Origin: a virus
Length of the DNA stretch: 34,452 nt
Virus record (IMG/VR): IMGVR_UViG_3300045988_077029
Coordinates: 1 to 34,452 of that record
Direction: 5' to 3' (one strand)
A program made the position numbers and the translations under genes. Below are positions 2,738-32,780 of the stretch, in pieces. The notes beneath the pieces were generated by a model. That model was not told where the DNA came from. It saw only the letters and a program-made list of their open reading frames with translations, and did not search any database. How positions within the stretch are numbered: position 1 is the stretch's first letter; each line of letters starts with the position of its first letter.

Positions 2738-4155
2738 TTTTCTCCTCTCTGTCTCTCGCTGATCAGCAGCCAGCTGTCGCATTTGCACTCGACGATATCC
2801 TGCACCGAGATCCCCGCGTCGGTCGAGACGAAAGGGTACTGGTCGCTTGCGCTGCCGCCGCACCGCGCCGTTAGATAGGCGCTGCCGCCTAACCCCGTGG
2901 GATAGCTCAGCACGACCAACGCGCCTTCCTCCGGCCAGTGCTCCGCATCCAGCGGCAACCATCCCGGCAAAATCACCGTCTTATCCTGCTCTGGATCATC
3001 GGTCAGACCGCAAAGATAATCCATCGTCGTGCCGAGCGTCAGGGCCAGCTTGGGCAGCGACCCTGCACCGGCAAGGCTGTTGTTCTCCCACGCGCTGTAG
3101 GTGCCGGGGTACTCGCCGATACTTTCGGCGAACTCCTTGCGCGTCAGTCCGGTCGCCTCGCGCAGCGCCTTGACGCGCTCGCAGAATTTTGGGGTCATAT
3201 TTTTGAGCCGTGGGTCGTCTGCTGCCGGATTTCGGGGCACGGCAGGCTCCGGTTCCTTCGGCGGCCGTTCGATGACCACAAAGTGGCAGGCGGTAGAGCA
3301 GGTGTCGCGGTTAAGACATTCACGGCAGCAGCCGGCACAGCGCCACTCGCCATTGCGATAGTGGTCGGCATACATCCTCGTGGCGTTCGGGCAGAAGCCG
3401 CCGGTATCCGGGCACTTATGCTTGCAGCAGGTCCAACAGGTCCGGAACTCGCGCACGTTGTTGATCGACCATGTGCGGCAGTGGTCAATAATCCAGTCGA
3501 GCAGCCGGTACTGCGTCTCGTCGTCCATGCGGGCGATCTCAAGTGCCGCGGCCTCGGGCAGCTCGCCCTCCTCCCACTTGCGCACGATCCCCGGGACCTT
3601 GAGCCCGCGCTTGATCGCGCTGAGGTTGGCGAGCTTGGTCTTGTTGACCTGCATCGCCTCGGCCACACGGTCGCGGATGCGCCCCGGAAGATCTTCGCCC
3701 GCCTCGCGGCGCTTAATGTAAATTTTCGTCAAGCGCTCTGCCTCTTCTGCCAGCAATGCAGGGGACTTCACGCGCTGTCGGTTGGCCTCGATCACGGCGC
3801 AGAGCTCCTGCTCCTCCGTCATCGCCGGCAGCACGCGGCAGAGCACGGTGAAGAACTGCTTTGCGACGTCCTCGTTCCGGTTCGCCGCGAGCAGCCGCAG
3901 CGCCGCCATGCGGCTGTGGCCAGAAATCAGGCGGTACTTGCCGTCCGTGCCCGGCACGACGGTCGGAGGCTCCAGCAGGCCATTCGCCTGAATAGATTCC
4001 ATCAGCTCGGCAAGCTTTCCGTTGTCTGGTCTCGGGTAAAAGTTCAGCGGATTGTCAAGGATGTCATCGACCGCGATCTCCCGCGTCGTGTCCGATTCGG
4101 GTACGCCCTCAACCGGCGTGAGGAACTCGCTCATATCAAACTTACCCTTAGCCAT
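2734..4155 (-). CDS. parB: ParB-like protein. ParB/Srx N-terminal domain fused to a Cys-rich middle region and an XRE-type HTH
   Basis: ParB box-like YRLISGHSRMAAL. Cys cluster CWTCCKHKCPDTGGFCPN...CAGCCRECLNRDTCSTAC. XRE HTH LREATGLTRKEFAESIGEYPGTYSAWENN...MDYLCGLTDD. 8-nt overlap with parA. Confidence 0.8.
   Translation of the reverse strand: MAKGKFDMSEFLTPVEGVPESDTTREIAVDDILDNPLNFYPRPDNGKLAELMESIQANGLLEPPTVVPGTDGKYRLISGHSRMAALRLLAANRNEDVAKQFFTVLCRVLPAMTEEQELCAVIEANRQRVKSPALLAEEAERLTKIYIKRREAGEDLPGRIRDRVAEAMQVNKTKLANLSAIKRGLKVPGIVRKWEEGELPEAAALEIARMDDETQYRLLDWIIDHCRTWSINNVREFRTCWTCCKHKCPDTGGFCPNATRMYADHYRNGEWRCAGCCRECLNRDTCSTACHFVVIERPPKEPEPAVPRNPAADDPRLKNMTPKFCERVKALREATGLTRKEFAESIGEYPGTYSAWENNSLAGAGSLPKLALTLGTTMDYLCGLTDDPEQDKTVILPGWLPLDAEHWPEEGALVVLSYPTGLGGSAYLTARCGGSASDQYPFVSTDAGISVQDIVECKCDSWLLISERQRGEK
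4088..4104 (-). repeat. Dispersed pseudo-palindrome copy S6 (GTACCCGAATCGGACAC on the minus strand), inside the 5' end of parB
   Basis: Read directly. 15/17 identical to S1-S3. Confidence 0.6.
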
Positions 4156-4933
4156 TGACCGCGCCTCCCTTGCTCAGATACTCCCGCGTGAAATCGTGAT
4201 ACGCCTTTGTCGCGGCATCCTTGGGCGCGTACCCTCTCAACGTCTTGCTCGCGTTGAGGTTGGACATGCTTGCCGGCACGGAAGCCCGCAGCGGGATCGC
4301 CGCCTCAAATGCCGGAATGCCGCTCACGCGCAAGGCCTGCTCTGCGGCCTCCTGGATGCGCGTGCTGCGCCGTTTGGTGATCAGCGCGCCCGCGATACGC
4401 AGCCGCGAATTGACCGTGCGCATGTTGGCGACCTGGCTGCGGATCTCGCCCGCGCCGTGGAGCGAGAACCCCTCCAGCTCGACGGGAATGATGATCTCAT
4501 CCGCAGCGCCCAGCGCCGCCACCGTGGCCGCATTGTAGGCGGTCGGGCAGTCGATGAGGATATAGTCTGCGCCCTCATCCTCTGCCACAGCAAGGCAAAA
4601 ATCACGGATGCCGTTTTTTGCCAGCCGCTCGCCGGTCAGGGCGGCGATGTCCGCCTTCGGCAGCTCTGCGCTGGCCGGGACGATCTTCACGCCATCGACA
4701 GGCGTATCCTGCACCAGCTCATCCCAGCAGCAGCCTGTCTCACCGGTCAGCACCTCATAGGTCGTGCCGCCGTGAATCGTGTCCGCGCGGAAAATGTCGC
4801 TCAGATTGCACTGGCCGTCCGCATCCATCACGATGACGCGCTTTCCCGCGGCCGCGAGCTCGGCCGCGAAGTTGATCGTCGTGACCGTCTTGCCGACGCC
4901 GCCCTTGTAGTTCATGATCGCAATCGTTTTCAT
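4148..4933 (-). CDS. parA: ParA/Soj-family partition ATPase
   Basis: Deviant Walker A MNYKGGVGKTVT. MDADGQCNLS. AGGAGG Shine-Dalgarno upstream. Confidence 0.9.
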   Translation of the reverse strand: MKTIAIMNYKGGVGKTVTTINFAAELAAAGKRVIVMDADGQCNLSDIFRADTIHGGTTYEVLTGETGCCWDELVQDTPVDGVKIVPASAELPKADIAALTGERLAKNGIRDFCLAVAEDEGADYILIDCPTAYNAATVAALGAADEIIIPVELEGFSLHGAGEIRSQVANMRTVNSRLRIAGALITKRRSTRIQEAAEQALRVSGIPAFEAAIPLRASVPASMSNLNASKTLRGYAPKDAATKAYHDFTREYLSKGGAVNG

Positions 4934-4951
4934 TTCGTCCTCCTGTTTTTT

Positions 4952-5143
4952 CTATTTCCGCAGCCGCTTGGCTGTCTCGTACTGGTAATTCCCGATGTCT
5001 TCATACTCTTTTTTCGCGTCCTTGATTTTCGCATTCGTCGCATCAAGGTTCGCTTTCCATGCGAGATAATCAGGGCATTTGTCCTGACACGCCGGATGAC
5101 GGCGCTCGCACATGTAGCACTTGCTGTTGACTTTCTTTCTCAT
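4952..5143 (-). CDS. Small Cys-rich hypothetical protein (63 aa)
   Basis: ORF track. CYMCERRHPACQDKCPDY. GAGGG upstream. Confidence 0.55.
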   Translation of the reverse strand: MRKKVNSKCYMCERRHPACQDKCPDYLAWKANLDATNAKIKDAKKEYEDIGNYQYETAKRLRK

Positions 5144-5152
5144 GCGCCGCCC

Positions 5153-5347
5153 TCAAAATTTGAAGCACTCGCGCATCGTGTACCCGAAGACCTGCGCCTC
5201 CACCAGGAAAAAGTGGTGCAGCTCGTTGATCCACACGATTTTGCCGCGCACCTTCTTCCGCGCTCGCGTGCTCTTTGGGTTCTCCCTGCCGTCCAGATTG
5301 CAGTACGCGCAGGGCGTCCAGGCGATCGGCTGTCCAATATACGGCAT
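5153..5347 (-). CDS. Small hypothetical protein (64 aa)
   Basis: ORF track. AAAGGAGAA Shine-Dalgarno 6 nt upstream. Confidence 0.55.
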   Translation of the reverse strand: MPYIGQPIAWTPCAYCNLDGRENPKSTRARKKVRGKIVWINELHHFFLVEAQVFGYTMRECFKF

Positions 5348-5363
5348 GATGTTTCTCCTTTCT

Positions 5364-6713
5364 CTACCGGCGCTTTGCGCCGCTCATGCGCTCATTGCGA
5401 GCATTCCGCTCGACGAGTTTCTTGTCTTCCTCGACCTCGCGTGCCGATGTCATCGTCATCGGCGTAAAGGTCTGCTTGTCGCCATCGAACCACAGCAGCG
5501 TCCGCAGCAGCAGGCCCTCTTTGTTCTTCACGATCCGCAGAAATCGGGACGTTGTTGGGTTATAGTCCCCGCCCTCGACGGGGCGGTAGATCATGAAGAT
5601 CATGTCCGCGTCCTGCTCCAGCTGGCCGGACTCCTTGAGGTCGCTCATACGCGGCTCATTCTGCTGCGGCTTGCCCTTTTTGGGCGTCACGGCGCGATCC
5701 TCGCGCGTCAGCTGCGCCAGCTCGATCACGAGCTTTTTCCGGCTCTGGGCGAAGGCGTGCAGCTCGCGGGAGATCTCCGCCACCTGCTCACTGCGCATAA
5801 TGCGCGTCGAGCTTGGCCGGATCAGCTGCACGTAGTCGATAAAGATCACGTCGAAGTCAAACGCCTCGGCCGCGCCGGTAATATCGCTGACGCTCCACCC
5901 GGCCGCCTCGATCAGCGTAAACTTGAGCGCGGATGCCGAGGCGCTCTTGGCCGCGAACCGCTCCCAGTCCTTGTCCGTCAGCTCTCTGCGTTTGATGGCC
6001 GTAAAGCTGATATCGTTCAGCGCCGCGACTACGCGGTCAGTTACCTTGCGCCGGTCAGTCTCCAGCGAGAAGAATCCCACGCGCCACTCCCGCGCCATCC
6101 GCAGCGCCATCTGGAGGGCCAGCGCCGTCTTGCCGTCGCTCGGATACCCGCCGATGATGACCACGTCGCCCGGCTGCGTGTATGTACCGGCGTCCACCTC
6201 GGCGAGACCATAGCGGACATATCGCACCGGATCTTTGGCCGTCTGGCGCGCCGCAAAGTCCTGTATCATGTCCTCCATCGTGTAGGCCGTGATCTGCCGC
6301 CCGCCGCTCCGCTCCTGCTGGAGCTTCGCCGCCAGCTCGCGGCACTCCTGCGCTGTGCCGGCTGCGGCCACCTGCATCGCAAGCTCCTGCATGCGCCGCA
6401 TGCTGGCCTGCTCGGCCATGATGGTGGCATACTCGCGCCAGTTGGCGCTGGTCGTCGTGATCTCAAGCAGCTGCGCGAGATACTCGCTCGACTCCTTGCC
6501 GACCTTGTCGCGGATCGTCACCGGCGTCACCGGCTTTGCCCGCAGATACAGGTCGCGGGCCGCGCGGAAGATCTGCCGGTTGATCTCAATGCGGAAGTCC
6601 TGCTCGCGGACGGCAAACAGCACGTCCTTGACGATCTCCGGCGCGGCGACCATCGCGCCGATGACCGCGGTCTCGGCTTCCAGCCCCGGCTGCACCTTCG
6701 TCGTGTTTGCCAT
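5364..6713 (-). CDS. dnaB: Replicative DNA helicase, DnaB family
   Basis: Walker A GGYPSDGKTALAL. Typical N-terminal EAETAVIGAMV. ELAQLTRE and FIDYVQL motifs. ATG at 6713 lies 2 nt after the upstream stop (a GTG at 6719 is also possible). Confidence 0.9.
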   Translation of the reverse strand: MANTTKVQPGLEAETAVIGAMVAAPEIVKDVLFAVREQDFRIEINRQIFRAARDLYLRAKPVTPVTIRDKVGKESSEYLAQLLEITTTSANWREYATIMAEQASMRRMQELAMQVAAAGTAQECRELAAKLQQERSGGRQITAYTMEDMIQDFAARQTAKDPVRYVRYGLAEVDAGTYTQPGDVVIIGGYPSDGKTALALQMALRMAREWRVGFFSLETDRRKVTDRVVAALNDISFTAIKRRELTDKDWERFAAKSASASALKFTLIEAAGWSVSDITGAAEAFDFDVIFIDYVQLIRPSSTRIMRSEQVAEISRELHAFAQSRKKLVIELAQLTREDRAVTPKKGKPQQNEPRMSDLKESGQLEQDADMIFMIYRPVEGGDYNPTTSRFLRIVKNKEGLLLRTLLWFDGDKQTFTPMTMTSAREVEEDKKLVERNARNERMSGAKRR

Positions 6714-6715
6714 AC

Positions 6716-7480
6716 TCACACCCCCCAGCCGAGCGGCAGCGCTGCGCTGCCCTCGTTCTCGACCGGCGGCATTTCGTCAGGCTTAAGCTCAAAGACAGTC
6801 AGCCAGTTGTACGTGATGGCCTTGCGCAGCATTGCGAGTTTTACCTCGCGCCGCCCGTCCGACAGTCTGTCCAACTTGCGGAGAATGAGCTTCATCGCCG
6901 CATCGGTTACAACGGCTTTCTTTCGGTTGACCTTGATGCGATTCTCCAGCAGCCCCATGATCGCCTCGCGCAGCTCATCGTCCTCGCCGCAGTAATCCAC
7001 GACGCACTTTTCGACCTCCGCGGGGGTTATAGGGGTTTGATTCTTTCTGTCTTTGGTTCTTTTAGTATTTATTTGGGTCGGAAAACCCGATGACGGTTTT
7101 TCCCGTTGTCGGGTTTCACCGTTGTCGGGTTTCCCCGACAACGGTGGCGCTTCGTCCTGCAAAACGTAGACATTACCGGCAAAATAACCGTTCTCGTCGT
7201 GCGTCTGCTCGCGGGTTAAGTACCCCACTTTTTCCAGCTTTTCAAGCAGCCTGCGGATGGTATCCTTGCTCACGCCCACATAGGCCGCGAGGCCCCTGAC
7301 AGAGTATTGCCACCCGTCCGGCAGGCCGACCATAATGGCAAGCAGTCCGCGCGCGTCCAGCGGCAGGCGCTTGTCCTCAATGGCGCTCTTGTAGAGCACG
7401 GTAAAGCGCTGTTTCCGGCCGGACTTGATTCGGCTCTCGCTCATGTCATCGCATGGCCGCGTGTCTTTTTCTTCCGCCAT
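6716..7480 (-). CDS. Replisome organizer / replication initiator (N-terminal winged HTH, DnaD-like C-terminus)
   Basis: GGAGGAG Shine-Dalgarno before MAEEKDTRP. wHTH-like LAAYVGVSKDTIRRLLEKLEKVGYLTRE. Sits immediately upstream of dnaB. Confidence 0.7.
   Translation of the reverse strand: MAEEKDTRPCDDMSESRIKSGRKQRFTVLYKSAIEDKRLPLDARGLLAIMVGLPDGWQYSVRGLAAYVGVSKDTIRRLLEKLEKVGYLTREQTHDENGYFAGNVYVLQDEAPPLSGKPDNGETRQREKPSSGFPTQINTKRTKDRKNQTPITPAEVEKCVVDYCGEDDELREAIMGLLENRIKVNRKKAVVTDAAMKLILRKLDRLSDGRREVKLAMLRKAITYNWLTVFELKPDEMPPVENEGSAALPLGWGV
7086..7144. repeat. Ori-like iteron/inverted-repeat cluster inside the organizer gene
   Basis: CCCGATGACGG (7086-7096), CCGTTGTCGGG (7103-7113), CCGTTGTCGGG (7119-7129), CCCGACAACGG (7134-7144). 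The last two form a perfect 11-bp inverted repeat with a 4-nt spacer. Confidence 0.6.
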
Positions 7481-7570
7481 GTACATCTCCTCCGATAATC
7501 TCGACAAAGTCCACAAACTTCGTCACCAACGTACCCACGCCGACGAATGTAAAGAAAATCGCCCATCCGC

Positions 7571-8143
7571 TCATCGTGCATACACCCCCTTTGCCAAAAC
7601 GGGGCTTGCATTTCCGCGTGAGTATGATATACTGTTCTTGCAATCGTTTTCAGACTCGAACCTCTGAGAACATGAACGCTTCGACGTGCCACCGTCGGGG
7701 CGTTCTTTTTTTGCGCCGTCAGCGTAGATCACTTGATAGGCCGCGGCAATGGTCTCGCGCAGCTCTTGCACGATGACGTCGAATTCTGATCGCTCGCTCT
7801 CGTCGATCACGCCGTCCTCGGCGATGCGCAGCAGCCCGTTGATGCAGTCCGCCGCGTCTCGCAGCCGGTTGGTCAGTGTGATCGTCGCCTGCGGCAGGGG
7901 CTTTGTCTCCACCTCCGGCAGCACGCCCAGCTGATCCGTCGCGCGGCTGTGCTCCAGCGCGAGCCACGGCAGATCGTAGACCTCAACCATCTTTGCGACC
8001 ACGCCGTCCGGTGGCACGCGTCGGCCGCTCTCATATTGTTTCAGACTTTCCGCCGAAAGTCCAAGCCGCTCGGCTGCCTCTTCCTGCGATAATCGGGTAG
8101 CCTTTCTTGCCCTTTGGTATAAATTTTGGTATTTGGGATGCAT
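7571..8143 (-). CDS. XRE-family HTH transcriptional regulator (190 aa)
   Basis: RLSQEEAAERLGLSAESLKQYESGRRVP. AAAGGAGAA Shine-Dalgarno. Confidence 0.75.
   Translation of the reverse strand: MHPKYQNLYQRARKATRLSQEEAAERLGLSAESLKQYESGRRVPPDGVVAKMVEVYDLPWLALEHSRATDQLGVLPEVETKPLPQATITLTNRLRDAADCINGLLRIAEDGVIDESERSEFDVIVQELRETIAAAYQVIYADGAKKERPDGGTSKRSCSQRFESENDCKNSISYSRGNASPVLAKGVYAR
7606..7633 (+). promoter_or_regulatory. Sigma70-type promoter TTGCAT-16-TGaTATACT (extended -10)
   Basis: Read directly on the plus strand. No plus-strand CDS follows, only a hairpin terminator about 40 nt downstream. Confidence 0.55.
7640..7712 (+). ncRNA. Candidate ~70-nt antisense sRNA (lambda oop-like), antisense to the 3' end of the XRE gene
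   Basis: Bounded by the promoter at 7606-7633 and the intrinsic terminator at 7674-7712. Confidence 0.5.
7674..7712 (+). terminator. Rho-independent terminator (13-bp stem with two G-U pairs, 6-nt loop, U7)
   Basis: gaacgcttcgacg-tgccac-cgtcggggcgttc followed by ttttttt. Confidence 0.7.
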
Positions 8144-8172
8144 GGATATTTTCTCCTTTCTGTGCTATGGTT

Positions 8173-8385
8173 TTACCAGGTTGACATCCACCGTGCCAGA
8201 GGCACAATGGGGATGATGTACCGTCTTCCGACCTTCTTGACGGGGAAAGTCTTGTCGTTGAGCAGCGCCATGCGGTCGACGCACAACAGCTTTTCGCTTT
8301 GTTCCATCGTCAGCACCTCCTGCCCCTCGTAGCGCTCGCGCAGCGCTTGCAGCTGGTCGCGAAAATCCTCTCGCTCTCGCGGCAT
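8173..8385 (-). CDS. Excisionase-family / MerR-like HTH DNA-binding protein (70 aa)
   Basis: LTMEQSEKLLCVDRMALLNDKTFPVKKVGRRYIIPIVPLARWM fits the HTH_17 pattern. ATG at 8385 lies just after the cro-like stop. Confidence 0.6.
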   Translation of the reverse strand: MPREREDFRDQLQALRERYEGQEVLTMEQSEKLLCVDRMALLNDKTFPVKKVGRRYIIPIVPLARWMSTW

Positions 8386-8387
8386 GT

Positions 8388-8591
8388 TTACTCGCTCCTT
8401 TCGTCTCGATAAAGATCGTTGATCGTGCACCCGAGCAGCTGTGCGATCTGCGGCAGCGTCTCGGACGACGGCGCGTTCACGCCGCGCTCCCAGGCGCTCA
8501 CAGTCTGCACCGTCACGCCCAGATGCTTGGCAAGGTAGCTCTGGGAGACGCCCTTGCGCTCGCGCATCGCCTTGACATTCAGTTTCAGCAA
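8388..8591 (-). CDS. Cro-like XRE HTH regulator (67 aa), first gene of the early operon
   Basis: RERKGVSQSYLAKHLGVTVQTVSAWERGVNAPS. TTG start with AAAGGAG 8 nt upstream. Divergent from the cI-like gene. Confidence 0.8.
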   Translation of the reverse strand: MLKLNVKAMRERKGVSQSYLAKHLGVTVQTVSAWERGVNAPSSETLPQIAQLLGCTINDLYRDERSE

Positions 8592-8643
8592 AATATCGGC
8601 TCCTTTCTTCCTCTTGATTTTTTCGCCGTGCCGTGATACTCTC

Positions 8644-8660
8644 TAAATTGTAAATTGATA
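8644..8660 (+). repeat. Switch-region box A, TAAATTGTAAATTGATA
   Basis: Direct repeat of box B (the 13-mer TAAAYTGTAAATT has one mismatch). Confidence 0.5.
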
Positions 8661-8800
8661 CCCAGTCAAAAAGAAAAAGAACGGGGGAGCGAGGACGAGT
8701 CGAACGCCCTTCTGGCAGTGGAGGAGACCATCCAAGCGATAGCCCAGGGAGAGAAACAGCAAGAGTATCCAATCATTTGCCGCGCACCGGCCGCTCCGTA

Positions 8801-8828
8801 TTCAATTCCTAAACTGTAAATTTATGAT
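8801..8828 (+). promoter_or_regulatory. Possible promoter of the cI-like gene, TTCAAT-16-TATGAT
   Basis: Read directly. The predicted start falls in the first ATCGGA/TCCGAT palindrome. Confidence 0.35.
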
Positions 8829-8829
8829 A
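8810..8829 (+). repeat. Switch-region box B, TAAACTGTAAATTTATGATA
   Basis: Direct repeat of box A, 166 bp away. Confidence 0.5.
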
Positions 8830-8830
8830 A

Positions 8831-8875
8831 ATCGGATTTTTCCGATTGTCAATACCGCAATCGGACTTTTCCGAA
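8831..8875. promoter_or_regulatory. Two operator-like palindromes, ATCGGA-tttt-TCCGAT (8831-8846) and ATCGGA-cttt-TCCGAA (8860-8875)
   Basis: Read directly. 29-bp centre-to-centre spacing, between the divergent cro-like and cI-like genes. Confidence 0.6.
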
Positions 8876-8908
8876 GTTTTGTCTAATTGTCCAATTACAT
8901 ATAGGTAG

Positions 8909-9247
8909 GTGATCCCCATAGAAACAGAAATCTTTGTGCAGAATGTCATAAAATACTGCGACATCAAGGGGATTAAGCCAACTATTGCGTGCGCAGAGAG
9001 CGGAGCCGGAAAAGATTTACTTGGACAGCTAAAAAATCGCGGGACGATCCCGTCTGTCGCCAAGGTGCAGCTCCTCGCGCAATACCTCGGCTGCACCGTC
9101 TCCGACTTGCTGGGTGAAAAAGCAACGAGCAGCCCGCCGTCCGAAGACAGCGAGCTGCTGCAAAAGATCAGCGCTCTTGCACCGGAACGGCGCAAGCAGG
9201 CGGAAGAATATCTGGACTTTTTGATAACTCAGCAAGGAAATCAGTAA
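8909..9247 (+). CDS. cI-like XRE HTH repressor (112 aa, no S24 peptidase domain)
   Basis: GKDLLGQLKNRGTIPSVAKVQLLAQYLGCTVSDLLGE. GTG start, uncertain. Divergent from the cro-like gene. Confidence 0.7.
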   Translation: MIPIETEIFVQNVIKYCDIKGIKPTIACAESGAGKDLLGQLKNRGTIPSVAKVQLLAQYLGCTVSDLLGEKATSSPPSEDSELLQKISALAPERRKQAEEYLDFLITQQGNQ

Positions 9248-9338
9248 ACCGCGCCCGGCTCTCGGGCGTCAGCTGACGGAGCTTGTCTTGGATGCGCTGG
9301 AGATCTGCGGACTTGCCGCAGTCATTTGGCTCATGCAT
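9168..9338 (-). CDS. Unlisted 56-aa ORF, convergent with and overlapping the 3' end of the cI-like gene
   Basis: GGAGGG Shine-Dalgarno 7 nt before the ATG. MHEPNDCGKSADLQRIQDKLRQLTPESRARFTDFLAELSK... Below the 60-aa cutoff of the ORF track. Confidence 0.3.
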   Translation of the reverse strand: MHEPNDCGKSADLQRIQDKLRQLTPESRARFTDFLAELSKSPDILPPACAVPVQER

Positions 9339-9354
9339 GATAGGTCCCTCCGTT

Positions 9355-9427: not shown

Positions 9428-9472
9428 GCGCCGTCCGGCCTTTTTGGTCGAAACGGCTGGTAAATAAAAACG

Positions 9473-9489
9473 GTGCCCAAATCGGACAC
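9473..9489 (+). repeat. Dispersed pseudo-palindrome copy S1, GTGCCCAAATCGGACAC
   Basis: The 19-mer 9473-9491 is identical to 15031-15049. Lies 16 nt upstream of the DUF4236 gene ATG. Confidence 0.8.
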
Positions 9490-9506
9490 CGGAAAGGAAG
9501 CGTCAC

Positions 9507-14710: not shown

Positions 14711-14750
14711 AAAAAGAGAGCGCCGATTAACCTCGGTGCTCTCTTTGTCC
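14709..14750. terminator. Bidirectional hairpin terminator between convergent units (A-run, 12-bp stem, short T-run)
   Basis: aaaaa-agagagcgccga-ttaacc-tcggtgctctct-tt. Strong U-run on the minus-strand reading. Confidence 0.65.
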
Positions 14751-15047
14751 ATCTGCGATTTTTTCGTATGCCCGCCTGCGGCAGCGGTTGACTGCCTCCG
14801 GCGACAGGTGCAGCGCTGCACACACTTGCGCGTAGCTCTTGCGCCGCACGTCGCACTCGATAAGGCATGCCATCTCATCGGGAGGCAGGTCATAAGATTG
14901 GATGTATGCTATAGCCCTGCGTGGGGCCATAGAGGATAGTTGCGCGCGGATCGCTCGGTGCTGACTATTCATGCCCGTGTAAGGCTTGCAGAGGCGCTTG
15001 CGCGTGGGCTTTCGCCGCCCGCTCCTTCCTGTGCCCAAATCGGACAC
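14727..15047 (-). CDS. Sigma-70 region-4-like HTH protein (106 aa)
   Basis: LPPDEMACLIECDVRRKSYAQVCAALHLSPEAVNRCRRRAYEKI. GTG start 2 nt after the endolysin stop (an alternative ATG lies at 14972). Confidence 0.55.
   Translation of the reverse strand: MSDLGTGRSGRRKPTRKRLCKPYTGMNSQHRAIRAQLSSMAPRRAIAYIQSYDLPPDEMACLIECDVRRKSYAQVCAALHLSPEAVNRCRRRAYEKIADGQREHRG
15031..15047 (+). repeat. Dispersed pseudo-palindrome copy S2, GTGCCCAAATCGGACAC
   Basis: Identical 19-mer to S1. Covers the start codon of the sigma-like gene. Confidence 0.8.
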
Positions 15048-20408: not shown

Positions 20409-21779
20409 TCACTCCGTCCACTGGATTGCCATTTCCGCCCCGTCTGAGTAGATGATCTTGACGGGAACTTTCTTTCCACCAACCGTCGCAAACTCTACTC
20501 CATACTTAAGCGGCTCTGAAATACCCTCTACCGTCTCAAAAAAGCTTCCCTGCTCCCAACTTGCGAAATTAAGTCCCACGGTTTTCCGCAGCCCGAAGAG
20601 GTCCAAATACCCCTCGTCCAGCGCGGCAAGACCGAGCTGTTTGCCCATGCTCGTCTCATACGTCAGCTCCAGCGAGTTCTGCCGCTTGACGAGGTAGCCG
20701 CGCTGCTTGCCGTTGTTGTCGCCCGCGCCGAAGACGTCCACAGGGTAGTAGTATTGGCCGTCCGATTGGAACGAAATCGCGCGCTTGACCTGCTCCTCGT
20801 ACTGATAGACCATCACCGGCCAGCTCGTCTGCTTGGTGGTGGTAAAAATGCGCTCGCCATTGGCATAGGGATAGCCGTCCGAGCCGATAGACGCGCCCGC
20901 GGGGTCTGCCTCCCAGTAGATCAGCTCCCCGTTCGGGTTTTTTGCCTGCTCCGTCGTGCTTTTGGCGATGCCCGCGACGAACTCAAGGCTCTGCCCCTCC
21001 ACGCGAATAAAATTGTCGTCCGTTGTGTCTTTAGCAAGGTACTTGACCACCCGGCGCGAGGTCGACAGCCGGTTGACGCTCAAGTCCGCGATCTCGCCGA
21101 AGGCGGAATACAGCGCGTCCGCCGAAAGCTGCCCGGAGACGTCCACATTGCCGTCGAGCTTAATGTAGCCGGTGTAGTTATTGGGCCCAACTTTGAGCGT
21201 GATCGTCGCGGTCGTCTGGCCATCCGGGCTGGACGCTGATGTGACGGATAGGCTGATTTTATCGACCGTTTGCGTGATGTCCGACACCCGCCCGTCAATG
21301 CCCTCCACCTTGAGGTTGATCTCCTCGCTGGTTTTGGTAATGAGCGACCGCGTCTTTGCCATGTTGCGCTCGATCTGCCGCTGCGTCGGCGATTTGTACG
21401 GGTATTCGTCGTCCAGCTCGTCCGCGTCCGGCGCGGAGATGTCCGGCGCGAGCAACGGATCAAACGTCATGTCCAGCGCAATGAGCGGCACATAATGCCC
21501 GTCCACCGTCACCGCGTCGCCAAGCTCCACCGCAGGGTCGAGCAGCGCCTTGCTGCCCTCGTATCCAATGTGCTTGTATCCGGAGACTTTGGCGAGGATC
21601 GCCGCCGCCATTGCATTCGTGCCGTCCGGCTGCAAGGCCGTCAGCGTCCGCCCGGTGTCCGATCCGGACACACCGACCACATCGCCGGTATCGTTCAGCA
21701 GCTCCACTTTGGAGATAGGCTTCGACGCGATGCCGGGGGAAAACTTCGCCAGCCGCCGCCCTAAATAGGTTTTGTCCAT
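20409..21779 (-). CDS. Tail-associated (Tal-like / minor structural) protein (456 aa)
   Basis: Position downstream of the Dit-like gene. Start MDKTYLGRRLAKF. Confidence 0.55.
   Translation of the reverse strand: MDKTYLGRRLAKFSPGIASKPISKVELLNDTGDVVGVSGSDTGRTLTALQPDGTNAMAAAILAKVSGYKHIGYEGSKALLDPAVELGDAVTVDGHYVPLIALDMTFDPLLAPDISAPDADELDDEYPYKSPTQRQIERNMAKTRSLITKTSEEINLKVEGIDGRVSDITQTVDKISLSVTSASSPDGQTTATITLKVGPNNYTGYIKLDGNVDVSGQLSADALYSAFGEIADLSVNRLSTSRRVVKYLAKDTTDDNFIRVEGQSLEFVAGIAKSTTEQAKNPNGELIYWEADPAGASIGSDGYPYANGERIFTTTKQTSWPVMVYQYEEQVKRAISFQSDGQYYYPVDVFGAGDNNGKQRGYLVKRQNSLELTYETSMGKQLGLAALDEGYLDLFGLRKTVGLNFASWEQGSFFETVEGISEPLKYGVEFATVGGKKVPVKIIYSDGAEMAIQWTE
21655..21671 (-). repeat. Dispersed pseudo-palindrome copy S5 (plus strand GTGTCCGATCCGGACAC, 7-3-7 perfect arms)
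   Basis: Read directly. Minus strand reads GTGTCCGGATCGGACACCGG. Confidence 0.6.
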
Positions 21780-25593: not shown

Positions 25594-25604
25594 GTTAATC
25601 CTTT

Positions 25605-26394: not shown

Positions 26395-26750
26395 TAGCGT
26401 TCCCTCCATGCAATGTCCGAATCGGACACCGGCCCTTTCATCTGCCCGACCGTCAGCTCGCACGTACCGTCGCCCGCCTTGTAGACGCGCAGGATGTGAT
26501 AGCGTCTCCCGAGATATTCCACCAGCTTCTCGTCGTGATAATCGTCCGCAAAGCTCGGCAAGATGATCTTAAGCTCCGGCGCAAGGCCGATCGCCTGCGC
26601 GTTATAGGTCTCCTGCGAGCCAACGCTGCGGATCTCGGCATAGCTCTCGCTCGTCTGCTCCGTGGTCTGCACGCGGCCGATTTCGTCATAACCGGTCTCA
26701 ACCTCGCGGATTAGCGTCACGACGTCTGAAAACGTGTAGGCCTCAGCCAT
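26394..26750 (-). CDS. Head closure / head-tail adaptor protein (118 aa)
   Basis: Position. YHILRVYKAGDGTCELTV pattern typical of SPP1 gp16-like adaptors. Confidence 0.6.
   Translation of the reverse strand: MAEAYTFSDVVTLIREVETGYDEIGRVQTTEQTSESYAEIRSVGSQETYNAQAIGLAPELKIILPSFADDYHDEKLVEYLGRRYHILRVYKAGDGTCELTVGQMKGPVSDSDIAWRER
26413..26429 (+). repeat. Dispersed pseudo-palindrome copy S4, ATGTCCGAATCGGACAC (contains the perfect 15-bp palindrome TGTCCGAATCGGACA)
   Basis: Read directly. Confidence 0.6.
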
Positions 26751-27036
26751 CGCTTTCCCCGCCTTTCTCCTGGATCAGGCGGTCGTGGAGATCCATGCGC
26801 AGGTAGGCCGGCAGCGCCGGCCCCGTGCTCTGGTTGCGCCTGCGGTAGATCCACGCCGCCATGCTCACCTGGAGCTGCGTGTCGTCCAGGTCGTCTCTCA
26901 GCGTGATCCCGTACCGCTCAATGCGGGAGGCCGCGACGGTGAGCAGCTGCTTGAGCTGCGCCTCGCGCTTCTCGTCAGCGTGGCGCATATCAAGCTCGGC
27001 CTCAAGCATTTTGAGCTTATCCTCGTCTGTCATCAT
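26743..27036 (-). CDS. gp6-like head-tail connector protein (97 aa)
   Basis: Position right after the capsid gene. Helical DE-rich sequence. Confidence 0.6.
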   Translation of the reverse strand: MMTDEDKLKMLEAELDMRHADEKREAQLKQLLTVAASRIERYGITLRDDLDDTQLQVSMAAWIYRRRNQSTGPALPAYLRMDLHDRLIQEKGGESDG

Positions 27037-27057
27037 CGTCCGCGGCCTCCTCTCTTA

Positions 27058-28737
27058 TCAGGCCGTGGCAACCAGCGCTGCGCCGATGCCGATCACGCGG
27101 CCGCTGGCGTCAATGTCGCATACGGTGACATAGTTACCGCTCGCCGCGGCAACGCCCTTGTCCGCGGGCACATCCTTCCAGCTCTCGCCCAGGGCCGCGC
27201 CCTTGGCCACGCTGACGGGCACGCCGGCGACCATGTACTTGAGCTTGCTGCCGGTGTTGCCGGTCACGGTCAGCGTGCTCTTGCCGCTTGCGGGCTTCGC
27301 CGCGGTCACGACCAGCGCGGCCGGATCGCCGTTATAATCGGTCGCAAAGCTCAGCGACGTGGTCGGCGCCGTGTTGTTGTAGTTGACGATCACAAAGCCC
27401 TCGCCAAAGACCGGCTTGCCGTCGAATCTCTGGAGGCCCTTGAAGATCGTGCAGTTCTGGATGAAGAGCGGAATGTCGCTCGATTCGATCTTCGCGCCGC
27501 TGCGCTCGACCCAGCGCTCAAGATCCATGTAGCCGCCCGCGATGTCGTAGTCGCTCATAAAGTCGCATTCGACGATCGTGCCGCCTACGACGGGCATCGT
27601 GTCCTCCATGCCGGGCAGCAGCATCGCCGCGCTGTTCCACGCCATCGCGCGGGCCTTGAGGTCCATGTGCGTTGCGCGGTTCATGACCCACACGAGATTG
27701 CCGTTGGAATAGTTGGGCTTTGCCTTGCTCAGCGCCGCGACCAGCGGACGGAAGAATGCAGCGCCCTCCGCGCTGAAGAGGTCGAGCTTTACGACGTTGC
27801 TCGTGTGCAGGTCAGTAAATGCCCCCTGTTTGGAGCCCCACCAGGACGGCTTGCTATCCGCGGCAAGGCGATGGACAAAGCCAACCGGCTTGTTGTCGCC
27901 GTCGCCGTAAACGCCCGCCTTATCCACAGCAAGTCCGATCGCCTGGCCGAGATAGTCGATGACGGTGGCGAGCAGCTCAAGGTTGTCGTCGTCCTCCAGC
28001 GTGGGGTTAGGCACGACCACAAAGCCGCCGACCATGTAGCCGTCCAGCTCGATCTGGGAGAAGTCGATGTCCAGCTCGTTGAGTCTACCAAGCGCCTCCG
28101 TCCAAACCGCCTCGGGGATCTTGCCCGCGATATTCTGGCGGGCCGTGCCCTTGAGCGGCGTGACGTGCATGTACTGGTACAGCTTGCTGTAGCGCTCCGT
28201 CGTGTCGCGCAGGATTGGCAGCAGCGTGTCGGGGATGCCAAGATCGGCGCCCTTGACGTCGCGCTTCTCGTTCTTCATCTCACGCACGCGCGTCAGAAAC
28301 GCCTTGACATCGTCGCGCTCCATCTGTGCGCTCAGGTCGCGGACAGCAATGCCGCGGATTTTCTCACGGGTTTCAGTAGGCATTTTCATCGCTCCTCTCT
28401 TCTTCATACCGCCCTTGCGGCCGCGGGCCTCATCGCCCTCATCAGCGCCGTCTACAGCATCCTGCACGGTGCTTTCCAGTTCGTCGATTTGGTCGGTCAG
28501 ATCCTGCGCAGCCTCTTCCGCGGCGTCCAGCGCATCTTCGACGTTTTTCTTTTCCTCCTCAAAGGCCGCAACGGCTTCTTCGACCGCCGTTTTCTCCTCG
28601 TCGGTGGCAGCAGCCTCGATGTCGGCCGCGAGCTCGTCCTCGCGCTTCTTAAATCCGGCCTGCTGCTTGCGCAGTTCCTTGATCTCCGCGTTCTTCTCGT
28701 TCAGCTTCTTGCGCAGGAGCAAAACTTTCAGTGCCAT
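27058..28737 (-). CDS. Major capsid protein, HK97 fold, with an N-terminal coiled-coil scaffold (delta) domain (559 aa)
   Basis: Start MALKVLLLRKKLNEK 3 nt after the protease stop. Long coiled coil followed by a capsid-like domain. Confidence 0.85.
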   Translation of the reverse strand: MALKVLLLRKKLNEKNAEIKELRKQQAGFKKREDELAADIEAAATDEEKTAVEEAVAAFEEEKKNVEDALDAAEEAAQDLTDQIDELESTVQDAVDGADEGDEARGRKGGMKKRGAMKMPTETREKIRGIAVRDLSAQMERDDVKAFLTRVREMKNEKRDVKGADLGIPDTLLPILRDTTERYSKLYQYMHVTPLKGTARQNIAGKIPEAVWTEALGRLNELDIDFSQIELDGYMVGGFVVVPNPTLEDDDNLELLATVIDYLGQAIGLAVDKAGVYGDGDNKPVGFVHRLAADSKPSWWGSKQGAFTDLHTSNVVKLDLFSAEGAAFFRPLVAALSKAKPNYSNGNLVWVMNRATHMDLKARAMAWNSAAMLLPGMEDTMPVVGGTIVECDFMSDYDIAGGYMDLERWVERSGAKIESSDIPLFIQNCTIFKGLQRFDGKPVFGEGFVIVNYNNTAPTTSLSFATDYNGDPAALVVTAAKPASGKSTLTVTGNTGSKLKYMVAGVPVSVAKGAALGESWKDVPADKGVAAASGNYVTVCDIDASGRVIGIGAALVATA

Positions 28738-28739
28738 AA

Positions 28740-29324
28740 TCAGTGTGCCTCCAGTCTTTTTTTCATATTTTCGCGCCAGACCTGCGTCTCGCGCTGCCTG
28801 ATGGTCTCGAGCTGCTTCCGTCTGGCGCTCACGCTCGTCGCCTCGTAGGCGGGAAACGTGCAGACGCTTACCTCGTACAGCGGATTGACCTTTTCGATTT
28901 CCCAGCGGCACCGGCCGTCGCCGAGATCCACAAAGGTCTCTCTCTCGATATCAAAACCAAACGAGCACTGGCTGACGTCACCCCGCTGGACGCGGGCATA
29001 GAGGTTCATGGCGTCGGTATCGTCTCGGTTGACTTCAATCTGTCCCCAAAGGCCGGTCTCGTCCTGCTTCAGCAGGAGCGTGCCGGCTGTCGTGCGTCCC
29101 ATGACGAGCGTCGTGTCGTGGTTGACCAGCGCGCGCACGTCCTGTGTTAAAACGCCCTCGAATGCGCCCGGCTTGATGACCTCCTCCGCGCCGTCCCACA
29201 GGGGATAGGGGGAGTCGAACACGGCAAAATAGCCCTCGATATAGAGCTTGCCGTCCGCGTCGCGGGTCTTAAAGTTCTGCGGCAGCGAGCGTACCTGTCG
29301 CTGCTTGCGGTCATTCGTTTCCAT
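28740..29324 (-). CDS. Prohead maturation protease, HK97 family
   Basis: IEGYFAVFDSPY...LVNHD...G pattern. Lies between the portal and capsid genes. Confidence 0.8.
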   Translation of the reverse strand: METNDRKQRQVRSLPQNFKTRDADGKLYIEGYFAVFDSPYPLWDGAEEVIKPGAFEGVLTQDVRALVNHDTTLVMGRTTAGTLLLKQDETGLWGQIEVNRDDTDAMNLYARVQRGDVSQCSFGFDIERETFVDLGDGRCRWEIEKVNPLYEVSVCTFPAYEATSVSARRKQLETIRQRETQVWRENMKKRLEAH

Positions 29325-30507
29325 CGTCGCTGTCTCCTTTCAGCTTTTTCTGGTTGCCGATCATCTCGGCCGGGATATAGTTTTCCAGCATGACCAGCTC
29401 TTCCAGACCGTCGATTGGGCCGAGGTCGAGCCAGTCGCGCACCTCGTTGCCGCTCATCAGGCCGCGCACATACTGCGCATCGCCTACGTCGGCCAGCTCC
29501 GTCAGCGTGTAAGCATAGAGCTTGCGCGTCGAGAACTTAAAATACATCTCTGGCGAGAGCAGCAGCTTTTTCGTCAGCTCCTGCGCGATCGTCGTCGCCA
29601 GCGGAACCACCATGCGCCGGATGTAGTTGTTATACTCCGGCTGATTATACGCGCCCACGCCGATCAAAAAGGGCGGCACGCCCAGTGTCGCGGCAACGGT
29701 CTTGCGATCCAGCTCGACCGTCTCGTTGATGGCGAGATCGGCCAGCGTCAGCGGCTTGACCTGCTGCACGTCGATCAGATCTGCTGGAATGATCCATGGC
29801 GCGCCCGTCTCGTCTTCGGAGAGGTACTGCTCCGCGAGGCGCTTGCGGCCCGCCTCGCTGCTGAATTCATCGGCCATCGCGTCGACCTTGACAATGACGC
29901 TCGGCTTCCACTTATCCGCCATAAAGCGGTTGGTCGTCGCTGCCGCCTGCTTGAGGTTTTGCAGCACGTCCCGCAGCTGGATCGTCACGCCGCGGCCGCG
30001 CCACGGCTGCGCCGGATCTACGTTGAACGGAAAGTGCAGCACCTCGCCTGGCTCAAACACGTTGCCTTTCCACAGCACTTGATAGCTGTTATCCGCCGTC
30101 GCATTCGCGCTGGCCCCCGGCATGGGGACGAGGTCAGCGAGCTTGCCGCTCTGCGTCACCGGCAGCACAAAGGCATTGCCCGTCGATAGCATCTGCGTCA
30201 CGATCCACTCGACAAACGTCTTGCGTGTCGACAAAGAGTATGGCGTCACGTCGATAAACCGGCTCAGCTCATTTTTCTCGCGCACGTCTCCGGCCTTGCC
30301 GTTGCGCATCAGCTGGATAGTTGATGCGCCAATGATGGACGCCGTCACCGCAATCCCCGTCGCCGCGTCCGGCGATTGCAGCAGCGAGGAATAGCCGCTC
30401 ACGCTCAGGCTGTCAAAGCTATCTCCTAAAAACAGACCCAGCGCCGAGTTATCGCCGCGGATGCGGGGCGGCGCTTTCCGCACCCGGCTTTTAATATGCT
30501 TTGTCAT
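29311..30507 (-). CDS. Portal protein, HK97 family (398 aa)
   Basis: Size and position. ATGA overlap with the terminase stop. Confidence 0.8.
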
Positions 30508-32639
30508 GCTTCTTTGCCTTTCTCATCGTCGTCATACCATCCCTTGCCCTTGTTGCTGGCTTCCAGGTCTTCGAGGTACGTGCACGCCGCAAACACCGCA
30601 CAGTCAAACACGTCGATGCGCAGGTGCTCCGCCATCTTTTCATACTGGATCATGTCGTCAGCCTTTTCGATCGCGTGCACGTTCTGCACGCAGTACTCAA
30701 AAGGCTCGGCGTGGCAGTAGTACAGCGTGCCGCGCTTTGCGCTCGCCTCAAGGTAACGGAAGCCCTCGCTTTTGCGCGTGAATAGCTGTGGCTGGTCCTT
30801 GATCGGGAAGTGCTTGTTTTTCATCTCAATGAAGTACTCGCGGCAGAATTTGCGGTCATGTCCGATACGCCGCAGCTTAAAGCCCTCCGTGCGCCGCGCG
30901 ATGTACCACCGAACAACGTCGGAATAGTTGAGCACCTTGTCGTTGCACATGTCGAGCCAGCCGTCATCTTTCCAGCCGAAGAGTGGGATCTCGTCTTCCT
31001 GCGCTTTCTGCGTCGCGGCCACGACGGGAAACCAGCAGTGCGGGATGATGATATCCACGCCCTTGTAGTTGCCAAACAGGCACGTCGCCGTCAGATCGTG
31101 CAGCTTGGACAGGTCGCTGCCGCCGTACCAGCGGATCGGCAGCCGGCGCAGCTCGTCGAGCGTCCAGTTGTACTTGCTGTCGCTTGCGCGGAATTCGTCG
31201 ATGTTGAAATACGCCTTGAGATCCGCCGTGAAGACGTTCAGCGACTTTTGCAGGAATTCAGGCCGCATCTGTGGGTCATCCTTGGCCTGCATTGCGTCGT
31301 TGATCATGTCCTGCGGTCGGATGGACTGTCCCCAACCGGGATTGCAGCCTTGCAGCACATCTGGATTGGTATAATCCACGTCGCCGCTGTCCATGCGCGG
31401 CGCGCAGGCGAGAAAAATAAACAGGCTGTCGGCCGCGTCGCCGGTGATCGTTCCCTTGAGGATCTTCCGGCAGTACTCCACGCGCCGTGCCAGAAAGCCG
31501 TGCGCCAGCTTACCACCGGACGAAATGCCAATGACGAGCTTGTTGGAGTACGCCTTGGTCGCGTCTTTCAGTACCTGGTACTGCTGCGGGCTCTTGTAGG
31601 TGTGCTCCTCGTCCGCGATGACAATGTTGCAGTTAAAAGAGTCCTGCTTGTCCGGACTGGCCGCCAGCGCGTTGATGCTGATAAACCCACCTTCGCCGAT
31701 GTCGCCAGTGATTGAGTGCTCAGAGTTGCTGTTGAGGATGCGCAGTCCGTTTTCTGGGTCGTCCGTAGTCGAAATACGCAGCCTGCGGATGTTGTACGAG
31801 AGGAAATCAAAGCCCTCCATCGCCTGTTTGAGCGCGCCGCCGACCTCGTAGACCTTTGATCCGCTCGGCGCGTAGTAAAGCGCCAGGGCCCACGCCAGCG
31901 CCGCGGCGAAGGTGGTCTTGATATTTTTTCGCGGGATGAAGTCTTGCGCTTCCGTAAAGCGTCTGAGCTGCGTGCCGGCACGGTAAAAGCCCATAATGTT
32001 GAACACAATGAACTTGTGATACCGCAGCAGCAGGAACGGCGTGCCGCGCAGCGGCCGGCCATCCATAAACTCGCCCTGCTGGTGGCACATCATTGTCTCA
32101 ATGATGGCAAGCACTTCGCAAGCCGGCTCACTGCGGAATTCCCACTTGGGGTTTCCCAGGTCGCGCACATACCGCTCACAAGCGAGGCGGATTTCTTCAC
32201 AGGCGACAATCTCGCCCGAAAGCACGTCCTCGACGTACCCGTCCACATCCGCCTGGTACCTGCCCGCGTTCTCGGCCGCGTACTCTTTGGCCGCGTCGAT
32301 CAACTCTTCAAGTTTCGACCGCCGCTCCACCTCGGGATTCGCGAGCTTTGCTTTCATGGCTTTCAGGCTTTTGGGCGTCAATCCGAGCTGTGCGCGCTGT
32401 GCCAGAATATCCTTGCGCAGCTGGTCGACTACCGCGTAGTTGGGATCTTTGGCCGTGTACGTTGCGCCCGTCTTGTTCACAAGCTCAGCGACCATTTTTC
32501 CGCCCGCGGCTTTCCACGCCTTTTCAGCGCGTGCGAGCTCTCGCTCCTGCTTCGCCAGTTCGTGGATCGCTTTGTCAAATATCGGCGAGTACGTCCCGAC
32601 CGCTTCCATATCCGCCTTGATCATGGCCTCGCGGCCCAT
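30504..32639 (-). CDS. terL: Terminase, a single ORF with a P27-type small-subunit-like N-terminus fused to the large subunit (711 aa)
   Basis: GGAGGTGAGG Shine-Dalgarno. N-terminal ...[31 protein letters not shown] (TerS P27 pattern), then [27 protein letters not shown] and the rest of a Terminase_1-like protein. Confidence 0.8.
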
Positions 32640-32661
32640 CGCCTCACCTCCGTGTTTTCTC

Positions 32662-32751
32662 CGGCGCATTCCCCGCTCTTCGCCTTGGCCGCGAAGAACG
32701 AGGACTGAAAGGAAGATCATCCATGTCCGCCGCAAAGAGCGGGGAACGCGC
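32662..32751. repeat. Long-range 22-bp inverted repeat (19/22 complementary) in the terminase leader
   Basis: GGCGCATTCCCCGCTCTTCGCC (32662-32683) and CGCAAAGAGCGGGGAACGCGCC (32730-32751). Confidence 0.6.
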
Positions 32752-32763
32752 CGGAAATTTTCT

Positions 32764-32780
32764 CGTGTCCGATTTGGGCA
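32764..32780 (-). repeat. Dispersed pseudo-palindrome copy S3 (minus strand GTGCCCAAATCGGACAC)
   Basis: Plus strand GTGTCCGATTTGGGCAC. Lies 125 nt upstream of the terminase ATG in the HNH-terminase gap. Confidence 0.8.

Follow-up and report, generated by a model that had tools for sequence, protein, structure and literature searches.

Among phage partition systems, ParAB-parS of P1 and the parABS cassettes of mycobacteriophages maintain extrachromosomal prophages and use one clustered parS region beside the operon, replacing integration. In the Firmicutes Spo0J/Soj system, parS is a 16-bp site (TGTTNCACGTGAAACA), and one B. subtilis parS lies inside spo0J. For N15, PMC7205306, citing Ravin and Lane (1999), gives four dispersed SopAB centromere sites, IR1–IR4. 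ParB-like cytidine triphosphate (CTP) clamps also serve long-range gene control, as in KorB-OB on RK2 (PMC11790492) and BisD-bisS on ICEclc (PMC12409273). Finally, the part of a 2025 survey (PMC12704722) that treats phage ParB-CTPase-DUF3850 fusions reports that they are always co-encoded with parA and that one binds CTP, suggests an RNA-related role for them, and names no DNA site. Here, we analyze a 34,452-nt stretch of viral DNA (positions 1 to 34,452 of IMG/VR record IMGVR_UViG_3300045988_077029; hereafter the window) that carries adjacent parA and parB genes and six dispersed copies of a 17-bp palindrome, which a first-pass annotation had proposed to be parS sites for the encoded ParAB or, alternatively, operators of helix-turn-helix (HTH) proteins. 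The parS reading is supported by the comparative evidence described below, with the XRE-operator reading disfavored, and we consider it probable that the six palindromes are parS-type sites bound by the phage ParB (2734–4155), working with ParA on the circular form of the genome.

The 9-mer ATCGGACAC occurs exactly six times in the window, as the first-pass annotation had counted, compared to 0.25 expected occurrences, and none of 100 shuffled sequences reached six. A relaxed search for the core GTGYCC-N5-GGRCAC, allowing at most one mismatch, returned the same six sites and nothing else (0.37 expected); across our estimates, the expected number ranged from 0.04 to 0.4. The sites are as follows.

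4088–4104, read on the minus strand: S6, GTACCCGAATCGGACAC, inside parB, covering codons 18–23 (VPESDT).
9473–9489: S1, GTGCCCAAATCGGACAC, intergenic, ending 17 nt before the ATG of the DUF4236-integrase operon.
15031–15047: S2, the same 17-mer as S1, beginning 2 nt past the endolysin stop codon, upstream of a sigma-r4-like open reading frame (ORF).
21655–21671: S5, GTGTCCGGATCGGACAC, in codons 37–42 of a minor tail protein gene.
26413–26429: S4, ATGTCCGAATCGGACAC, within the final 36 nt of the head-tail adaptor gene, just 5' of the ribosome-binding site of the next gene.
32765–32781, read on the minus strand: S3, GTGCCCAAATCGGACAC, intergenic, flanked by the HNH gene and terS and ending 125 nt short of the terS ATG (32639).

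The sequences quoted earlier, the shared 17-mer of S1, S2, and S3, and the identical 19-mers (17-mer plus CG) at S1 and S2 were all confirmed, as were the positions of S1 at the start of the DUF4236-integrase operon, of S3 125 nt upstream of the terminase, and of S6 in the 5' end of parB; the coordinates previously given for S3 (32764–32780) were off by 1 nt. Three sites are intergenic (S1, S2, S3) and three fall within coding termini (S4, S5, S6). None is more than 116 nt from the end of a gene, and intergenic DNA makes up only 10% of the genome (P about 0.007). S2 had been described as covering the start codon of the sigma-like gene, which is probably not the case. The GTG within S2 is merely the first possible start of the maximal ORF, and S2 is most likely intergenic because relatives have frame-breaking indels between S2 and Met-26 (14972). 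The arms of S2 are retained in relatives, with differences in the center, the Y/R positions, and the flanks and with indels, and S1 is likewise kept while its flanks vary. Relatives with 31–90% identical ParB proteins retain a site at the position homologous to S6, +59 to +68 nt into parB; S5 is unchanged in five relatives at 92–97% nucleotide identity and was also found in loci L268 and L269. No sigma-70-like promoter was found at S1–S3 in a scan that is crude for Clostridia, which counts against the earlier description of these identical copies as sitting at control points. No host-type parS is present in the window. On the minus strand, S1 with its flanks (9471–9491) forms a 9-bp hairpin followed by TTTTTATTT, a terminator-like arrangement antisense to the DUF4236-integrase operon.

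The two ends of the window overlap directly by 55 nt (1–55 = 34398–34452), and the window is thus a complete circular assembly whose true length is 34,397 bp. On this circle, the gaps between sites are 5385, 5558, 6624, 4758, 6352, and 5720 nt, and the probability of a minimum gap this large is 1.5e-4. Even spacing as a rule of the family was ruled out by inter-site gaps of 0.8–10 kb in relatives and by the long site-free tail/lysis region of the Flavonifractor phage Cormatin; across the genomes compared, dispersal is general and strict regularity is not.

The candidate binding protein and its partner are encoded as follows.

2734–4155, minus strand: parB, 473 aa, with a ParB/Srx N-terminal domain, a central HTH, a Cys-rich stretch, and a C-terminal XRE-type HTH_3.
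3601–3684, minus strand: predicted HTH of ParB, aa 158–185, GRIRDRVAEAMQVNKTKLANLSAIKRGL.
3910–3921, minus strand: box II of ParB, aa 79–82, GHSR.
About 3256–3436, minus strand: Cys-rich stretch of ParB, aa about 240–300, CWTCCKHKCPDTGGFCPN...WRCAGCCRECLNRDTCSTAC.
4148–4933, minus strand: parA, 261 aa, a Walker-type partition ATPase of Soj size, overlapping the parB start.

Against Pfam ParB_N, the window ParB scores 26.0 bits, just below the 26.3 cut-off, and a profile built from 16 diverse subfamily members matches Noc and ParB/Spo0J structures at 7e-18 to 4e-12. An AlphaFold2 model of residues 21–240 (predicted local distance difference test, pLDDT, 81–96) aligns over ~220 columns, including the HTH, with the Caulobacter ParB-parS complex 6t1f (template-modeling score, TM, 0.69), and it also aligns with Noc 7nfu (TM 0.65) and KorB 8qa9 (TM 0.67); Foldseek comparisons with ParB, Noc, and KorB gave E of 1e-8 or better and TM of 0.65–0.70. 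As modeled, the window ParB matches the ParB/Noc/KorB fold over its N-terminal domain and HTH. This HTH is the best-conserved block of the subfamily (GRxRDxVAEAxxxSxxKLAxLxxIxxxL), with helices predicted by AlphaFold2 at 160–168 and 172–184 (pLDDT 85–95), and the ParB of locus L071 passes Pfam HTH_ParB (24.0 bits against a cut-off of 22.6). The part of ParB that is shared within the subfamily runs from residue 1 to about 290 and matches phrog_27290, phrog_15982, and phrog_4715. Distant ParB proteins with the same site have no HTH_3, and the C-terminal HTH_3 was therefore rejected as the shared recognition module. Some of these proteins bear DUF3850 instead; the DUF3850-bearing ParB proteins of L042, L056, and L071 are encoded downstream of parA in loci that carry the motif. 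ParA scores 1e-33 against AAA_31, 3e-18 against CbiA, and 6e-49 against phrog_164, and its KGGVGKT is invariant.

Box II reads G-H/E-x-R across the subfamily (GHSR or GHRR), with G79 and R82 invariant and H80 nearly so. At the N-terminus of ParB there is a conserved M-x-K-x-K-F-D/N motif in which F6 is invariant. In L166, L168, and L172, ParA and the flanking genes are 90–100% identical to those of the window (ParA 94–98%) and ParB has been exchanged for one only 31–41% identical; in these swapped loci, the DNA motif is kept, as are the first 12 residues of ParB, which would fit a ParA-contact peptide. The Cys-rich stretch recurs with conserved Cys spacing in many subfamily relatives, AlphaFold2 confidence is low there, and it could be a metal or Fe-S site. 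Relatives can also encode a second, orphan ParB_N-domain protein just upstream of terS (L186, 17821–19814; L265, 9054–10352), beside a radical-SAM-like gene in one relative and fused to an N6_N4 methyltransferase in the other; the window has no such gene.

Compared to Spo0J/Soj, the window system shares a site inside parB, a ParB/Srx N-terminal domain combined with an HTH fold, a Soj-sized Walker ParA encoded immediately upstream, and a palindromic site of 16–17 bp present several times per replicon. It differs in that the site sequence is unrelated, box II is G-H-x-R rather than GERR, the N-terminal motif is K-x-K-F-D rather than LG(R/K)GL, the C-terminus in the window family is a Cys-rich region plus HTH_3 or a DUF3850 rather than the canonical dimerization domain, and the sites are spread over the whole replicon. 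Unlike the P1 and mycobacteriophage parABS systems, the window has genome-wide sites and an integrase. N15 is likewise a temperate phage with a ParA/ParB pair and palindromic sites that are scattered rather than clustered. However, N15 is a linear plasmid prophage without integration, whereas the window phage has a tyrosine integrase and its relatives integrate or appear to do so; the N15 site (GTGCGACC-N2-GGTCGCAC) differs from the window site, SopA is a type Ia ParA and the window ParA is of the short type, and the hosts are unrelated. The analogy to the N15 plasmid prophage drawn in the first-pass annotation is thus apt for the dispersed sites and uncertain for the lifestyle, given the integrase and the integrated, inducible state of Cormatin.

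Like KorB and BisD, the window system has dispersed ParB-type sites on a mobile element and extra effector domains fused to the ParB core; the similarity to KorB extends to the predicted fold, and BisD acts on a normally integrated element, like the integrating relatives of the window phage. Unlike these systems, no promoter overlap was detected in the window, no KorA- or BisC-like partner was identified, and half of the window sites are in coding termini. The DUF3850 fusions belong to the same protein subfamily as the window ParB, which has the Cys-rich region and HTH_3 in place of DUF3850, and the present data point to a DNA site for these fusions rather than an RNA-related role. What distinguishes the window system from the characterized ones is the sequence of the site, box II, the N-terminal motif, the C-terminal domains, and deployment across the whole genome in phages that have an integrase.

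The palindrome is linked to ParB in searches that were blind to the motif. Retrieval with the window ParB gave 54 loci containing 107 sites (at most two mismatches) in 821 kb, compared to less than one site expected by chance by our own estimate. Nearly always, one site had a fixed place, either where parA meets parB or +59 to +68 nt into the parB gene, even when ParB was only 26–40% identical and on contigs whose GC content ranged from 27% to 66%. For ParB proteins of 26–36% identity, the anchored site is 27–28 nt upstream of parB or in the 3' end of parA (27–225 nt upstream overall), and in L047 it lies within a 9-residue insertion (LVSDSDTEE) in the ParA tail. Retrieval by ParA alignment, also blind to the motif, gave 76 new loci, which were distributed as follows.

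ParB subfamily present: 60 loci with the motif and 2 without it, both of them short loci.
ParB subfamily absent: 3 loci with the motif, 2 of which are cut off at the parB start, and 11 without it.

The association between the ParB subfamily and the motif in these loci was highly significant (Fisher p = 5e-9), and the co-variation of parB and motif that the first-pass annotation had proposed as a check was thus found in 60 of the 62 ParB-bearing loci. The 11 loci that lack both constitute a single lineage, where the gene after parA encodes an unrelated protein.

About 6800–7888 of the locus (L204, L206, L208, and others): 362-aa protein, MTVPFDVSRILQD...GGWLDFLKNETEFS..., in the place of ParB after parA.

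Presumably, this protein is another type of centromere-binding protein that uses a site of its own. No alternative repeated palindrome was found in the ParB-poor or motif-poor loci L271, L272, L273, and L204. Among relatives that share the head module (portal 43–47% identical) and have no ParB in the 10 kb upstream, there was no site or one weak site. When the window was compared to the complete genomes of Cormatin and MT835558 and to several distant motif-bearing lineages, ParA and ParB were the only proteins shared in every case. A profile search placed 527 protein clusters in the ParB clade at E <= 1e-10, among the scored candidates.

These results bear on the alternative that the sites are operators of an XRE/Cro-type repressor or of the sigma-r4-like protein and form a master-operator network unrelated to ParB. 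Several HTH proteins are encoded by the phage, 17-bp palindromes are typical of operators, and a site stands beside the sigma-r4-like gene, upstream or downstream, in many loci. However, the motif-free sister lineage, which has neither this type of ParB nor the motif, retains XRE (43%), Cro-like (41%), DnaB, and DnaD-like homologs at a similarity equal to that in motif-bearing loci, and ParA and ParB are all that distant lineages have in common with the window. In addition, there is no copy of the 17-mer in the switch region, which has palindromes of its own.

8830–8848 and 8858–8876: AATCGGA-N4-TCCGATT, in the divergent region that separates the Cro-like gene from the plus-strand operon.

The AATCGGA half-site is thus present in the switch-region palindromes, as had been pointed out, but the palindrome is unrelated: its arms are in the reverse order compared to the 17-mer and it lacks the GTG/CAC ends, and on these grounds it was rejected as a member of the 17-mer family. 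The switch-region palindromes are probably CI/Cro operators. The sigma-r4-like protein was rejected as the binder of the 17-mer, its gene being absent from both Cormatin and MT835558, which bear sites. On this evidence, we regard operators of the HTH proteins as a very unlikely explanation of the six sites.

The sites belong to a motif family that extends well beyond the window. The family core is GTGYCC-N5-GGRCAC, with a center that varies by lineage, and the form that occurs most often is the perfect palindrome GTGTCCGAATCGGACAC. Viral contigs scanned for exact matches had the motif in at least 120 loci; among the matches listed, 95 of 137 exact hits were this single palindrome out of eight allowed variants and, because one form dominates in this way, most of the exact hits are real. 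Hundreds of related phages carry this site, on contigs of 27–66% GC content that have the same GC-rich arms throughout. In the flanks of the listed matches, the only constraints are an avoidance of A at position −1 and of T at position +17 (almost never T). Relatives retrieved with ParB often carry the symmetric C/G variant GTGCCCGAATCGGGCAC, and mixed half-sites within one phage are common. Cormatin has one perfect site and three GTGTCCAACTTGGACAC sites; among its sites are one at the 5' end of parB, one at the 3' end of its own adaptor gene, and one 20 nt upstream of terS. In the literature library that was searched with the 15- and 17-mers, no paper gave the site sequence.

Another explanation is that the motif is a by-product of a recurrent V-S/P-E/D-S-D/G-T peptide, of a host-factor site, or of chance. 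The palindrome does encode VSESDT or VSDSDT in one frame, and half of the window copies are coding, but three of the window copies are intergenic, and the coding copies occur in unrelated proteins, always close to a terminus and sometimes as insertions. Moreover, synonymous positions are constrained while amino acids change. Among 31 distinct parB 5' regions, the entropy at third codon positions was 0.91 bit in the flanks compared to 0.36 bit within the motif, whose CCC and TCG codons inside parB were invariant, and an Asp/Gly flip in the encoded residue exactly followed the A/G flip at motif position 14. As judged from these patterns, the coding copies are constrained at the DNA level and are not a conserved peptide, which answers the earlier concern that they might merely reflect a V-S-D/G-S-D peptide. 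A host-factor site would not track ParB, and the window has no parS of host type. A by-product origin thus seems hardly credible.

A further alternative is that the sites function as nucleic-acid structures, either RNA hairpins acting as terminators or translational elements or DNA cruciforms, with symmetric changes in the arms being compensatory. In keeping with this idea, arm variants are often symmetric (T..A and C..G, GTGTCA..TGACAC, GTGTTC..GAACAC), S1 scores as a hairpin with a T-run on the minus strand, and S1, S2, and S4 lie just upstream of purine-rich stretches that resemble Shine-Dalgarno sequences. However, hybrid sites with unequal arms are common and include S1–S3, the orientation relative to transcription is mixed, and S1 and S3 have a C-A mismatch on the mRNA strand. 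Only S1 is followed by a T-run; none follows the other five sites, and position +17 avoids T. Rfam and tRNA scans gave no matches, and a structural role would leave the exclusive link to ParB unexplained. We therefore judge this explanation to be highly improbable.

From these comparisons, we infer actual binding of the sites by ParB, nucleotide-dependent sliding, stimulation of ParA, and the biological role of the system, which could be partition of the circular form or sliding-clamp regulation like that of KorB and BisD. In the mechanism that we propose, a ParB dimer would recognize both GTGYCC arms through the central HTH, and, by analogy with ParB, Noc, and KorB, the N-terminal nucleotide-binding domain with its G-H-x-R box would close the clamp and spread from each site. 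The Lys-rich N-terminal peptide of ParB (MAKGKFDM) would engage the adjacent ParA ATPase. Four to six dispersed loading sites would place ParB on most of the 34-kb circle, and the circular form of the phage would then be positioned or segregated by ParA, whether it arises by infection or excision or is being replicated or carried as an episome.

ParB might instead bind the sites for a mainly regulatory purpose, with KorB- or BisD-like clamps loading, sliding, and silencing or activating the integrase operon, the late operon, or lysis, and with ParA as an accessory. The sites do occur where modules meet (at the parA/parB junction, at the end of the endolysin gene, and ahead of both DUF4236-int and terS), and the ParB model also matches KorB (TM 0.67). 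Cormatin is integrated and another relative apparently so, and a centromere is thus not obviously needed. In addition, the window ParB has an extra XRE-type HTH, the C-terminal effector domains of relatives vary (DUF3850, Cys-rich stretch), and there are precedents for such regulation (PMC11790492; PMC12409273). However, no promoter-like sequence overlapped S1–S3 in the same crude scan, S4, S5, and S6 are within structural or other coding regions, and the KorA- or BisC-like partner is lacking among the proteins identified. Furthermore, the ParA partner and the conserved, putative N-terminal contact peptide are universal in the family, which points to ParA-driven positioning. A mainly regulatory role is therefore unlikely in our estimation, although the regulatory and partition readings are not mutually exclusive. 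We give somewhat more room, as a minority possibility, to the idea that ParB is a genome-wide organizer rather than mainly a plasmid-style centromere protein, with clamps that would load at four to six sites and coat the whole 34-kb element for long-range control of modules, for compaction or positioning of replicating or excised circles, or for shielding of the DNA. The same universal site in hosts of 27% to 66% GC and the near-even placement of sites here, every 4.8–6.6 kb, would accord with such a role.

Several observations weigh against parS-type sites that work with ParA in partition. The negative control for the association with ParB is a single lineage at 95–97% identity, and a few ParB-bearing loci, such as L271, have only degenerate sites. 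A tblastn search with ParB against 72,556 plasmids found no homolog. Box II is GHSR rather than GERR, with His at the position of the catalytic Glu of GERR, and nucleotide hydrolysis or specificity may thus differ from canonical ParB; the canonical LG(R/K)GL ParA-binding motif is absent from the N-terminus. There was no clear residue-to-base code between HTH variants and arm variants, and a candidate code relating R, N, or K after 'KLA' to T, C, and A arm variants was rejected because no consistent rule emerged. The parAB genes lie in the early (Cro-side) replication operon of an integrase-bearing phage. Cormatin was integrated and showed no Hi-C domain signal (PMC10197239). A relative with an 84% identical ParB is on a 76-kb contig, where its integrase is beside an Rce1-like gene with 23 kb of further contig beyond, an arrangement that suggests an integrated prophage. 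Because an integrase is present, Cormatin is integrated, and another relative is apparently integrated, a classical plasmid-prophage centromere role is not established.

Other features of the family bear on when the system might act. Cormatin, whose ParB is 34% identical to that of the window and whose genome has the same layout, is an integrated prophage of F. plautii YL31 that is inducible in vitro and in vivo and has cos ends (PMC10197239). Further relatives are on contigs of 111–180 kb. Because Cormatin is integrated and other relatives appear integrated or are in larger contigs, the family is not a set of obligate plasmid prophages. Given the location of parAB in the Cro-side early replication operon, expression of these genes probably falls in the phase in which the genome exists as a circular replicon. 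The window lineage was assembled only as 34.4-kb circles or as a 68.7-kb dimer-like scaffold: independent, permuted assemblies of the same phage are 34,423, 34,452, and 34,516 nt long (the last length twice), none of the assemblies of this phage placed it in a larger contig, and a 68,715-nt scaffold of a relative with a 92% identical ParB has a circularly continued gene order at ~2× genome length and looks like a head-to-tail dimer. An episomal phase of the window lineage is possible.

The window has 58% GC content and comes from a temperate siphophage of human-gut origin. ParB relatives in genome collections are in metagenome-assembled genomes (MAGs) of Oscillospiraceae, and the host, to go by these relatives, is of human-gut Oscillospiraceae type. 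A scan of representative genomes with ParB returned only small fragments of Oscillospiraceae MAGs, which are uninformative on integration, and megablast of the whole window against phages and plasmids gave only short matches to unannotated gut-virome sequences. On the minus strand, the gene order is Cro-like, XRE, DnaD-like, DnaB, ParA, ParB, Rep initiator, HNH, terminase, portal, protease, capsid, connectors, and tail, followed by the M15 endolysin and then the sigma-r4-like ORF; the plus strand carries the DUF4236-integrase operon, which encodes the tyrosine integrase. Three further features are noted here.

14727–14972, minus strand: sigma-70 region-4-like ORF (Sigma70_r4_2, E = 3e-6).
30504–32639, minus strand: terminase, with small and large subunits in a single uninterrupted 711-aa ORF that contains Terminase_4, TerL_ATPase, and TerL_nuclease.
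32671–32680 and 32735–32744: perfect 10-bp inverted repeat, CCCCGCTCTT and AAGAGCGGGG on the minus strand, located between S3 and the start of terS, with a distance of 54 nt from arm to arm.

The sigma-r4-like ORF is uncalled by public gene callers, yet it is kept at 47–86% identity in other phages, and almost all loci have a motif copy beside it, on its upstream side in one group and on its downstream side in another. The terminase gene call of a close relative is 712 aa with the same domains, and more distant relatives have separate terS and terL genes. The inverted repeat could be a leader-RNA or cos-related structure.

The palindrome provides a candidate, testable DNA target for a large uncharacterized clade of phage ParB proteins, including the ParB-DUF3850/ParA operons to which the 2025 survey drew attention as puzzling. 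A 17-bp site that is conserved across host GC content, together with a compact ParB, could also serve as an orthogonal ParB/parS pair for DNA labeling. For the biology of the family, our results raise the question of why integrating phages, such as the inducible Cormatin of the OMM12 model community, should retain ParABS together with sites that are scattered throughout the genome.

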